From assembly GCA_951406725.2 (NCBI GenBank), contig OX597829.1, positions 55,862,001 through 55,926,000 on the forward strand: a DNA stretch of 64,000 nucleotides. The letters run 5' to 3'. The translations under genes and the position numbers were made by a program. Origin of the DNA: Octopus vulgaris (taxonomy: Eukaryota). The notes under the pieces were generated by a model. It was not told where the DNA came from. It made no database searches and saw nothing but the letters and a program-made list of their open reading frames with translations. This document shows positions 28,681-43,361 of this stretch, piece after piece. Numbering within the stretch: the first letter of the stretch is position 1; the number at the start of each line of letters is the position of its first letter.

Positions 28681-29466
28681 CAAAGGAGCGAAGAGAGAAG
28701 ATTAATCCCTGGTCACGGCGAAGACGGGAGTCCGGATGGCCCCTGTACAAGGACAATCCGAACACAGACAAATATTGCAAAGACTGACCGGTAGAGCGGA
28801 AATGGCGCGAGACCGAGGTCTCATTGCAGAGTCGGATGTCTCGGAGGTGTTCCGTGAACCGGTCAGCCAAGCGGCGTCCTTTTTGCCCGATGTATAGAGA
28901 AGGGCAGAGAGAGCAGGAAATGCAGTAGATGAAGTGCAGGTGAAGGAATCAGAGATATGATAGGGTCGATGATGGATGCCGGTGAGGTGGGTGGTGTTGG
29001 AAAGGTAAGGGCAAGTGCGACAGCGTAGGCGGGAGCAGGAAAACGAGCCGGGTTGGGAGGTTGGGTTAGGGAAGAAGCTGTGGACCAATAGGTCTCGTAG
29101 GTTGTGGGCTCGTTTGAAGGAGGGGAGGGGTCGGTTAGCGAAGATGTGCGAAGTGGAGGGGTCGGACTGGAGTCGCCGGAAGGTTCGGAGAATGGTGCAT
29201 TGGAGAGGTGGGTTGGTGGGTTGGTAGGTGAGGAGAAACGAGAGACAGGAGACAGCCGGGCGGGTACGTGGGAAGAGAGCAGATGCACGGTCCACTGTAC
29301 GTGCTCTGGCAAGGGCAGTGTGGATAGTAATGAGGGGATATCCACGTAGGATGAAGTGGTGAGCCATACGTTGAGACTGAGTCTCAAAGTCATGGTCGTC
29401 ACTACAGAGCCTGCGTAGACAGAGGAATTGGGAATTAGGGTGGGAAGAGGAGAAGTTGAGGTAGGT
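28681..29466 (-). pseudogene. Penelope-like element ORF fragment: RT C-terminal region, Cys-rich linker and GIY-YIG endonuclease (Neptune-like), frameshifted
   Basis: ORF 28702-29568 has YLNFSSSHP, LRRLCS, RGYP, FKRAHNLRDLLVHS, CSRLRCRTCPY; continues in another frame as CSLCPSLYIGQ..RRLADRFTEHLRDI..VSRHF. Confidence 0.9.
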
Positions 29467-29487
29467 GTATATATATATATATATATC

Positions 29488-29812
29488 AGTGGTTAGAGCA
29501 TTGGGCTCACAATCGTGAGGCAGTGAGTTCGATTCCCGGACCGGGCTGTGTGTTGTGTTCTTGAACAAGACACTCTATTTCACGTTGCTCCAATTCACTC
29601 AGCTGTAGAAATGAGTTGCGACGTCACTGATGCTAAGATGCATCACCCTTTGTCGTTGTCTTGGTGAATATTGGTGGCGTGGAGAGGCGAGACTGGTATG
29701 CATGGGAGACTGCTGGTCTTCCATAAACAACCTTGCTTGGACCTGTGCCTCGGAAGGGAACTTTTTAAGTACAATCCCAAGGTCATTCATGACTAAAGGG
29801 GCTCTTTACCTT
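29488..29812 (+). mobile_element. tRNA-derived SINE family D
   Basis: agtggttagagc A box, gagttcgattccc B box; homologous to 21233-21564. Confidence 0.8.
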
Positions 29813-29816
29813 CACC

Positions 29817-29842
<26 letters not shown>

Positions 29843-29847
<5 letters not shown>

Positions 29848-30401
29848 TCAATTTAGGGTAGCAAAAAATTCAATAGAAATTTATCGCTACCAGCGGCCTA
29901 GTGGAAAAGAGAAAATAGTCAAAGACTAAATATATAAATATAACAAATTTAGGAATGGCCTTAACAGGCCATTCGTCCACCAGAGAGAGCAGCCAGAACT
30001 CAAACCGCCAAGTAGTAGTAATTCAGAAATTAGGTGAAAATTTAAAAACGTTTACCCTAATTCATCTTTTAGACGATGAATCGTTTCTGTGTTTTTCATG
30101 ATAAACTAGCTTAATTAAATTAAATTAAGCTAATCTACAATAGGTCACACTTCATCAGTAAAAAACCTGGGAGAGACAAATATACACGAGGCGTCTGTAT
30201 CAATGCCTCCGGAATATCTGTCTTAAAATTTTCAAGACCAACGTATTCTCGTCAACTTATCAGCAGTAAATATAAACTGCCGATTCAATCTCAGAATTAG
30301 TCAGAAAATTATCAATTAATCAATTTAGGGTAGCAAAAAATTCAATAGAAATTTATCGCTACCAGCGGCCTAGTGTAAAAGAGAAAATAGTCAAAGACTA
30401 A

Positions 30402-30414
<13 letters not shown>
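29843..30414 (-). mobile_element. Retrozyme-like non-coding element: 472-bp unit plus 100-bp terminal direct repeat, inside (TA)n
   Basis: 29843-29942 equals 30315-30414 with 1 mismatch; contains a hammerhead and many short hairpins; no ORF; (TA)n on both sides. Confidence 0.75.
30067..30163 (-). ncRNA. Intact type I hammerhead ribozyme
   Basis: Minus strand: tttta-CTGATGA-agtgt...tagcttaattt aatttaattaagcta...acaca-GAAAC-gat-tc-atc-GTC-taaaa; stem I tttta/taaaa, stem III acgat/atcgt, GUC cleavage triplet. Confidence 0.8.
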
Positions 30415-30451
<37 letters not shown>

Positions 30452-30528
30452 CACCAGGTGGTGCTATTAAGTTAGACATGGCCTGGGCCAATAATGGCCG
30501 AAACCTATCAAAGTATCAAAGTATCAAA

Positions 30529-30566
<38 letters not shown>

Positions 30567-42477: not shown

Positions 42478-42718
<241 letters not shown>

Positions 42719-42843
42719 TGAGGGTACTACTATTCGTAGATACCAACACGCTAAGAGGGACCAATGCGGTCAAAACTACTAAAAATAAACAAAATTTTAC
42801 CGAATGCAAAACTTCAAAACACATCATTTTAAAAAAGAATTCA

Positions 42844-42907
42844 GTTACATATCACATGTGATTTCGCATTTAATGCAGAATATGCATTTCATGTTCGTCA
42901 GTGCAAC
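42844..42907 (-). ncRNA. Type I hammerhead ribozyme (left-arm copy)
   Basis: gttgca-CTGACGA-acat...atgc-GAAA-tcacatgtga-TA-tgtaac; palindromic stem III, AUA triplet; the stem II closing pair is a mismatch. Confidence 0.7.
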
Positions 42908-42990
42908 AAACTCAAGAAATATAAGAAAAAACATAACATTACAAACTCGATAGCCAACCGTAGAATTCGTCGTAGCTTGTACGAATGTTT

Positions 42991-43054
42991 GTTGCACTGA
43001 CGAACATGAAATGCATATTCTGCATTAAATGCGAAATCATATGTGATATGTAAC
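42991..43054 (+). ncRNA. Type I hammerhead ribozyme (right-arm copy)
   Basis: gttgca-CTGACGA-acat...atgc-GAAA-tcatatgtga-TA-tgtaac; stem I gttgca/tgtaac. Confidence 0.7.
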
Positions 43055-43293
43055 TGAATTCTTTTTTAAAATGATGTGTTTTGAAGTTTTGCATTCGGTA
43101 AAATTTTGTTTATTTTTAGTAGTTTTGACCGCATTGGTCCCTCTTAGCGTGTTGGTATCTACGAATAGTAGTACCCTCAATATAATATAAATGAATATTT
43201 TCAAAGAGGAAGAATTTACGGATTTTTTCTCTTACGATGTTTTTCACGCTGACTACTGATAATTTCTTTTAAAGATTTTATCCTCAATTGTTA

Positions 43294-43361
<68 letters not shown>

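Follow-up and report, generated by a model that had tools for sequence, protein, structure and literature searches.

The window analysed here, a stretch of 64,000 nucleotides of the Octopus vulgaris genome (assembly GCA_951406725.2, contig OX597829.1, positions 55,862,001 to 55,926,000), contains between two TA runs a short element that begins and ends with the same 100 bp and carries a hammerhead motif. A sequence-only reading had taken it for a retrozyme-like element, left by reverse transcription of a circular RNA of ~472 nt past its own start and mobilised by the reverse transcriptase (RT) of a Penelope-like element. The locus raises the questions of where copying of such a unit begins, what kind of template was copied and which enzyme was responsible, and these are addressed below with the related copies found in the same genome.

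The copy in the window

The anatomy originally described was confirmed in most respects (Table 1). The 100-bp direct repeats are offset by 472 bp and differ at a single position (29904), (TA)n is present on both the left and the right, all of the local hairpins listed earlier occur in the sequence, and no stop-to-stop ORF of at least 130 aa overlaps the copy. Similarly, the longest ATG ORF in a four-unit array of the same family, termed family 1, is 43 aa. The minus strand folds much better than its shuffles, with z values of -4.36 for the hammerhead region and -7.09 for the whole unit.

Table 1. Positions within the window of the family 1 insertion, its parts and flanks, and of a family 3 insertion.
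Feature	Positions	Strand	Remarks
Left (TA)n target run	29817..29842		read from the sequence
Retrozyme insertion	29843..30414	minus (RNA strand)	1.21 units of the 472-nt family 1 repeat
First copy of the 100-nt B-to-A stretch ('tail')	29843..29942	minus	site B at 29843
Site B signal	29849..29891	minus	hairpin 29857-29891, then in the RNA shared motif 29849-29857
Site A signal	29943..29974	minus	start 29943, shared motif 29944-29953, hairpin 29953-29974
Type I hammerhead motif	30066..30164	minus	long AU-rich stem II extension; A-A at 10.1-11.1
Stem-loop III	30073..30084	minus	palindromic across the family; position 30079 privately changed here
Second copy of the B-to-A stretch	30315..30414	minus	arm stops shortly before site A, in TA-rich sequence
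Right (TA)n target run	30415..30450		read from the sequence
Family 3 two-armed insertion in (TA)n	42713-43301
Family 3 ribozyme	42836-42915	minus
Family 3 ribozyme	42983-43062	plus

The neighbourhood holds other repeats. A SINE-like repeat with a tRNA-like head, recognised by eye, lies between two TA runs at 29487-29812 and has very many related contigs in the sequencing runs compared. On the other side, a short insert between TA runs (30451-30530) resembles a fragment of a Penelope-type minimal hammerhead, and one contig of a sequencing run (X1) joins the element end to sequence beyond this insert, which may be polymorphic. Part of the stretch was found in 19 of the 24 sequencing runs listed, none of them recorded as RNA; in four runs, guessed to be RNA, assembled contigs cover most of the unit, and such contigs show neither strand, ends nor circle.

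A dispersed family with two fixed start sites

The genome searched comprises 2.8 Gb in 227 contigs. The DNA search, in which 39 of 1870 first-look candidates were scored, gave at least 148 family 1 matches. In addition, a 20-nt word from the ribozyme, which misses subfamilies with a different stem III, has 237 exact copies, compared with none for a control word. The 86 insertions analysed comprise 39 chosen by similarity to the window copy and 47 found by the ribozyme word (contigs C1-C8). They consist of 472-nt head-to-tail units, up to ~7 per arm, distributed across many contigs; many arrays carry more than one ribozyme and the window copy carries one. (TA)n adjoins nearly all of the starts in these 86 insertions, and the sampled insertions are flanked by (TA)n on both sides, within which a target-site duplication is unreadable. 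The element of the window thus belongs to a real, young, dispersed and non-coding retrozyme family, and the proposal of a family targeting TA was upheld by the dispersed copies within (TA)n. Of the tandem or circularly permuted copies for which a test had been suggested, tandems were found and free permutation was not, the starts being fixed.

In the direction of the cDNA, which is the plus strand of the window, arms begin either at site A (29943) or at site B (29843, repeated at 30315), which lie 129 and 229 nt, respectively, 3' of the ribozyme cut site in the RNA. Tail-to-tail pairs of arms make up 54 of the 86 insertions: 47 are A/B, none is A/A, one pairs B with a near-B start and six have a second arm that begins elsewhere. 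The 32 one-armed insertions start from A in 23 cases, from B in seven and from neither in two; all arm classes were assigned by eye, with two short or trimmed arms read from their flanks. Independent choice of site by each arm would predict about half same-site pairs. Since the sample of 39 insertions picked by similarity is biased against short A/A pairs, scans for exact TA-to-element junctions, which are free of query bias, were added. These gave 126 A and 110 B junctions, and among the 100 A and 100 B junctions listed, the A/B pairs converging within 6 kb numbered 32, with A/A and B/B pairs absent, as counted by eye.

These counts remove one element of the earlier interpretation, in which the 100 bp were an arbitrary overrun of the RT past its start: the redundancy is 100 bp long because this is the fixed distance between sites A and B. 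The 100-nt B-to-A stretch corresponds to the 'tail' of Penelope elements and is longer than the usual 30-40 nt. The window copy is a single arm, which began at site B, ran one further lap and ended before site A. About 17 of 148 arm ends fall within the TA-rich stretch before site A and about 7 would be expected by our own arithmetic, so a stop there is favoured, which suggests either microhomology with the target or later loss of a second arm. As a separate observation, four loci of families 1 and 2 (L008, L041, L173 and L184) have second arms that start near unit position 55-58, possibly a minor third start site.

Two further families and a duplicated start signal

A second family was found via the neighbour of one locus. 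Its unit of 470 nt is collinear with that of family 1 and 73% identical to it, with a canonical G-C at the base of stem II (2536 first-look candidates; L169-L198, for example L177:1143-1612). Family 3, one insertion of which lies in the window, has a unit of 496 nt without blastn similarity to family 1 (1756 first-look candidates); its copies are 95-99% alike, non-coding and hammerhead-bearing. In arm samples that were both chosen with a B-containing query, the two-armed insertions of family 2 (n=18) include 12 A/B, one B/B and five that pair B with another start, and those of family 3 are A/B in all ten cases. The A-to-B offset is 100 nt in family 1, 102 nt in family 2 and ~108 nt in family 3. 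The arm rule mostly holds in families 2 and 3.

Ahead of each start, the RNA of families 1 and 2 carries a hairpin and a short motif. Within each family the motif is the same at A and B (CCUAAAUU in family 1, CUUAUAUU in family 2 and CCUCAAU in family 3) and differs between families, indicating that the two sites change in concert; in one family 1 subfamily, the motif is altered at site A alone. In the fold of the alignment, the site A and site B hairpins flank a long-range helix. We infer that a protein reads this hairpin-plus-motif signal.

The hammerhead and its predicted activity

In the window copy, stem I is formed on the minus strand by 30164-30159 and 30071-30066, followed by core positions 30158-30152, GAAA at 30087-30084 and stem-loop III at 30084-30073, and the predicted cut falls between 30072 and 30071. 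The core letters were matched by eye to the hammerhead core consensus. The hammerhead had been called intact, which stands for these letters and has to be qualified for the first pair of stem II (10.1-11.1), which is A-A, and for loop III, whose palindrome is disrupted by the private change at 30079; activity is a prediction only. The Rfam hammerhead model search that had been suggested returned no match in the window copy, neither at the gathering score nor at E up to 5, likely on account of the long stem II.

Comparison of related ribozymes supports the fold. Among 40 distinct ribozymes of families 1 and 2, 96.1% of stem cells pair and 8 of 20 stem pairs are changed on both sides, compared with pairing of 33-43% in slid controls, these cells representing a handful of independent events rather than 40. 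Stem III is still palindromic after a double change found in 49 copies. Outside the ribozyme, many of the one-sided changes give G-U wobbles when read on the minus strand, a point in favour of this being the RNA strand. At the first pair of stem II, the window copy and the most numerous subfamilies have A-A and other family 1 subfamilies have A-U or canonical G-C; 17 of the 40 distinct ribozymes are unpaired there. A U-U mismatch at the same place has been reported in a ribozyme whose cleavage is weak in the single form and good in the dimer (Cervera and de la Pena, 2020; PMC7229834, in the text available), so an A-A mismatch is compatible with activity.

It speaks against activity that none of the lowest-energy predicted folds forms the hammerhead. 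In a model that leaves tertiary contacts outside, the active fold of the window copy costs 7.7-8.4 kcal/mol above the ensemble, compared with 2.5-6.1 kcal/mol in most relatives, 6.8-7.9 in one relative and 9.4-12.6 in one mutated relative. As far as can be judged by comparing sequences, the hammerhead fold, of putative activity, is conserved across families 1 and 2. Because it holds a single ribozyme, the window copy cannot undergo the double cleavage that would free a 472-nt monomer; together with the A-A mismatch and the private loop change, this makes it probably a dead end.

A pattern for a short-stem-II ribozyme with identical stem III gave no matches. In the subfamily with a canonical G-C at the base of stem II, core U4 has often changed to C (L091, L097, L116, L117 and L122), and family 1 subfamilies with an unchanged core often carry A-A at this base. 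On a speculative note, a weakened ribozyme may be favoured in family 1.

One template per insertion

The 93 full units of the first 39 insertions were compared with each other. Units diverge by 0.29% within an arm (77 pairs) and by 0.28% between opposite arms (48 pairs), in contrast to 3.45% between insertions (4153 pairs, median 2.3%). In 12 of 23 multi-unit arrays, a variant private to the array among the 39 sampled insertions is present in every unit, and 6 of 12 have such a variant in common to both arms; in one array (L031), two variants occur in all eight units of both arms. Such homogeneity across both arms fits the rolling-circle copying of one monomer. The other 11 arrays have no private variant, several being as close to other arrays as to themselves, and five two-armed arrays show some arm-fixed differences, which are partly alignment edges. 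Two long arms (L051 and L032) have the variant order X-Y-X-Y-Y-Y, which is impossible from a single circle and requires later unequal crossing-over or a mixed template.

In addition, 196 pieces run through the ribozyme cut site, with no bases added or lost at the junction in the ribozymes listed, and copying past this site requires a template that is circular or an uncut multimer. Thus, of the proposal that the RT ran past its start on a circle of ~472 nt, the copying through the cut site stands, the arbitrary overrun does not, and the circle is a prediction. In family 1, 3 of 148 arm ends lie at the cut site (1.6 expected), and this lack of enrichment means that cleaved RNA has left no genomic trace in this family. 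Arm ends of family 3 likewise show no enrichment at the cut site. In family 2, the ends of 4 out of 53 arms come within 2 nt of it; a uniform null, which is too lenient, would predict 0.56, and one of the junctions is doubtful.

An uncut linear multimer transcribed from a parent array could also be copied by a Penelope-type twin start, its homogeneity being inherited or produced by gene conversion or unequal crossing-over. In its favour, the Anolis Penelope enzyme used mainly uncut RNA as substrate in vitro (Frangieh et al., 2024; PMC11167929), the ribozyme of family 1 appears to be attenuated, the X-Y-X-Y-Y-Y order occurs in two arrays, and parent arrays may be among the unsampled copies. However, a new mutation found in every unit of both arms needs a bottleneck of one unit, a pattern seen in 12 of 23 arrays and, across arms, in 6 of 12; no ordered series of variants was noted as common to two sampled arrays, and the hammerhead fold has been kept by compensatory change across 27% divergence. 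We therefore consider copying from a linear multimer unlikely, if still a serious contender. A cleaved linear monomer, on which the RT jumps from the 5' end to the 3' end or to another monomer, would likewise give a one-unit bottleneck, and the family 2 arm ends near the cut site are in its favour. The junctions without added or lost bases in the ribozymes listed speak against such jumps, and switching between different molecules would mix variants inside arrays, making this template quite improbable.

The search for a partner element

Fusion to a Penelope ORF was seen in none of the 86 insertions of family 1, so the unit is not an ordinary pLTR attached to such an ORF, the outcome against which the sequence-only reading had been set. 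Three Penelope proteins of this genome have matches in the flanks at 9 of 115 loci; in no case is the fragment fused to the unit, TA runs or hundreds of bases lying between them. The genome does contain Penelope-like elements with (TA)n targets and open frames of 781 aa, and the Penelope tails measured here are ~33-48 nt long, compared with 100 nt in family 1. Of 6136 first-look candidates for GIY-YIG loci, 150 were scored; comparison of 12 sampled Penelope ends with the units gave no significant resemblance, and the ribozyme covariance model found nothing significant in 43 GIY-YIG loci.

Several candidates were considered and set aside. The ends of the two abundant Penelope groups, and of several less common ones, are unrelated, with tails of ~33-48 nt. 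A degraded Penelope ORF in the window (28715-29502, minus strand), a remnant with RT and GIY-YIG, is GC-rich, old and set apart by TA runs and the SINE-like repeat, and was rejected as parent; an 80% match in one GIY-YIG locus (L126) is a short insertion of a family 2-like relative. A young Penelope-like family (L149-L158 and L168) combines partial tandems and a tail of 38 nt with an open frame of 781 aa; the core of its hammerhead-like motif begins with U instead of C. The repeats upstream of the 781-aa element proved to be same-strand partial tandems rather than inverted arms; only one locus (L154) is visibly two-armed, and there one arm has a short end and the opposite arm a long one. At one of 135 loci (L019:2277-2540, the same as L169:1501-1764), 43 nt of an inverted Penelope 3' end (86%, E 4.5e-8) directly adjoin a family 2 arm, with no TA run in between. 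This chimeric junction is a single hint of a possible co-insertion with the partner element.

The suggested mobilisation by a Penelope-like RT is thus sustained by the Penelope-type insertion signature, with the partner not among the 12 sampled ends, and we regard it as very likely that this is a non-autonomous element moved by Penelope-type machinery. A model stated for vertebrate retrozymes derives small satellites from solo Penelope pLTR fragments by local unequal crossing-over, and the preprint, in the text available, prefers to explain the tandems by local amplification (Li, Clavereau and Pollet, 2026; bioRxiv 10.64898/2026.07.22.740005). Two arrays do carry signs of local duplication, and Penelope fragments lie in the flanks of the 9 loci. 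Nevertheless, ORF fusions are absent from the 86 insertions, the neighbouring fragments are separate, and unequal crossing-over cannot give multi-unit inverted arms each anchored at its own start (as in L031 and L032), so that this origin is largely refuted and very improbable. Inversion by twin priming is known in L1, and some loci have fragments of LINEs nearby. A LINE-type enzyme that employs ordinary twin priming has nonetheless a negligible chance of being responsible, as the unit has no poly(A) or simple-repeat tail of its own, both arms start internally and at fixed sites, and a two-site tail has been described as exclusive to Penelope-like elements (Frangieh et al., 2024).

Proposed mechanism

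The reading that we favour, and hold to be likely, is a non-LTR retrozyme of TA microsatellites in which a Penelope-like RT copies a predicted 472-nt RNA circle from both sites. An array with at least two ribozymes would be transcribed and would cut itself into 472-nt monomers, the ribozymes probably acting as pairs because loop III is palindromic, and the monomer would be ligated into a circle, as in other retrozymes. A Penelope RT-endonuclease would then bind the twice-present hairpin-plus-motif signal and nick both strands of a (TA)n run, one strand being primed at site A and the other at site B. As the pattern in the DNA shows, each arm runs from a fraction of a lap to ~7 laps, scarless through the cut site, and the arms either join tail to tail or a single arm is retained; the window copy represents one B arm of 1.21 laps. 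More tentatively, and with a probability that we place somewhat below even, a Penelope-type RT dimer may grip one small RNA circle at two pseudo-symmetric hairpin-plus-motif sites flanking the central helix, nick the two strands of a TA run and simultaneously start two rolling-circle cDNAs, each from its own site.

These data provide countable evidence on two matters: the copying of animal retrozymes into tandem DNA by Penelope enzymes, with one template per insertion, and the inverted Penelope insertions with a one-sided tail, with start sites that are mutually exclusive between arms. If the dimer reading were true, the insertions would be a genomic record of rolling-circle reverse transcription of an animal circular RNA, and it would explain both the inversion of Penelope insertions and the restriction of their tail to one end. 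The published in vitro Penelope assay could, in addition, take up this small and defined RNA, which has two mapped start signals and exists in three natural versions. The surprise is moderate, as the kind of element is known and the copying of animal retrozyme circles by Penelope-like enzymes has been proposed before (Cervera and de la Pena, 2020, in the text available).

Comparison with known systems

By its testable features, a type I hammerhead per unit, dispersed tandems and the absence of coding capacity, family 1 is a metazoan non-LTR retrozyme as these are described in the available text of Cervera and de la Pena (2020). The unit of 472 nt compares with the 150-450 nt stated there, and stem II is ~55 nt longer. 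Circles and cleavage have been measured for metazoan retrozymes, copying by Penelope enzymes being only proposed; in family 1, circle and cleavage are predicted. Metazoan non-LTR retrozymes have a target-site duplication of >4 bp when one is present; here both flanks are (TA)n and a duplication is unreadable. The main text of that paper makes no mention of twin starts, inverted arms, (TA)n targeting, octopus or cephalopods. Plant LTR retrozymes differ in having type III hammerheads in two LTRs, in contrast to the type I hammerhead of family 1, which lies outside the repeated 100 bp. In the literature covered, outside which subscription papers and repeat libraries fall, we found no cephalopod retrozyme and no one-site-per-arm rule.

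Vertebrate non-LTR retrozymes have been interpreted as Penelope derivatives because they co-occur with Penelope elements and share homology with pLTRs, known elements being matched by 24 of 57 Xenopus families according to the available text of the preprint (Li, Clavereau and Pollet, 2026). They share with family 1 the proposed mobilisation by Penelope and the occurrence as monomers, dimers and multimers, and their family lengths of 51-972 bp take in 472. In place of the pLTR homology described there, family 1 gave no significant match to 12 sampled Penelope ends and shows a Penelope-like insertion anatomy. The Chlamys MRC1 element is also non-autonomous, of Penelope type and inserted as multiple head-to-tail copies; unlike the octopus families, the Chlamys elements resemble their autonomous partners at the 3' ends and belong to a clade without canonical hammerheads, in the text available (Craig et al., 2021; PMC8557442).

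The closest likeness is to Penelope insertions themselves, for which partial tandems, inverted arms, a (TA)n bias and a tail of 30-40 bp that is often one-ended have been described (Craig et al., 2021, in the text available), the tail being the distance between two RT start sites (Frangieh et al., 2024). Partial tandems, an inverted, 5'-truncated second arm, two internal starts and a microsatellite target are all found here. In contrast to Penelope elements with GIY-YIG, family 1 has no ORF, and the tails of the three families are 100-108 nt long rather than 30-40. Both strands are extended by the Penelope enzyme, a predicted dimer, and in vitro the Anolis enzyme showed no difference in start site between the strands and had no need of ribozyme cleavage (Frangieh et al., 2024); this lack of a strand difference differs from the near-strict rule of one site per arm observed here. 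Compared with Penelope-like elements, the retrozymes of families 1 and 2 are further marked by the duplicated hairpin-plus-motif at both starts. The kind of element is thus a known one, and what is new is its threefold longer tail, its duplicated start signal and its coupled arms.
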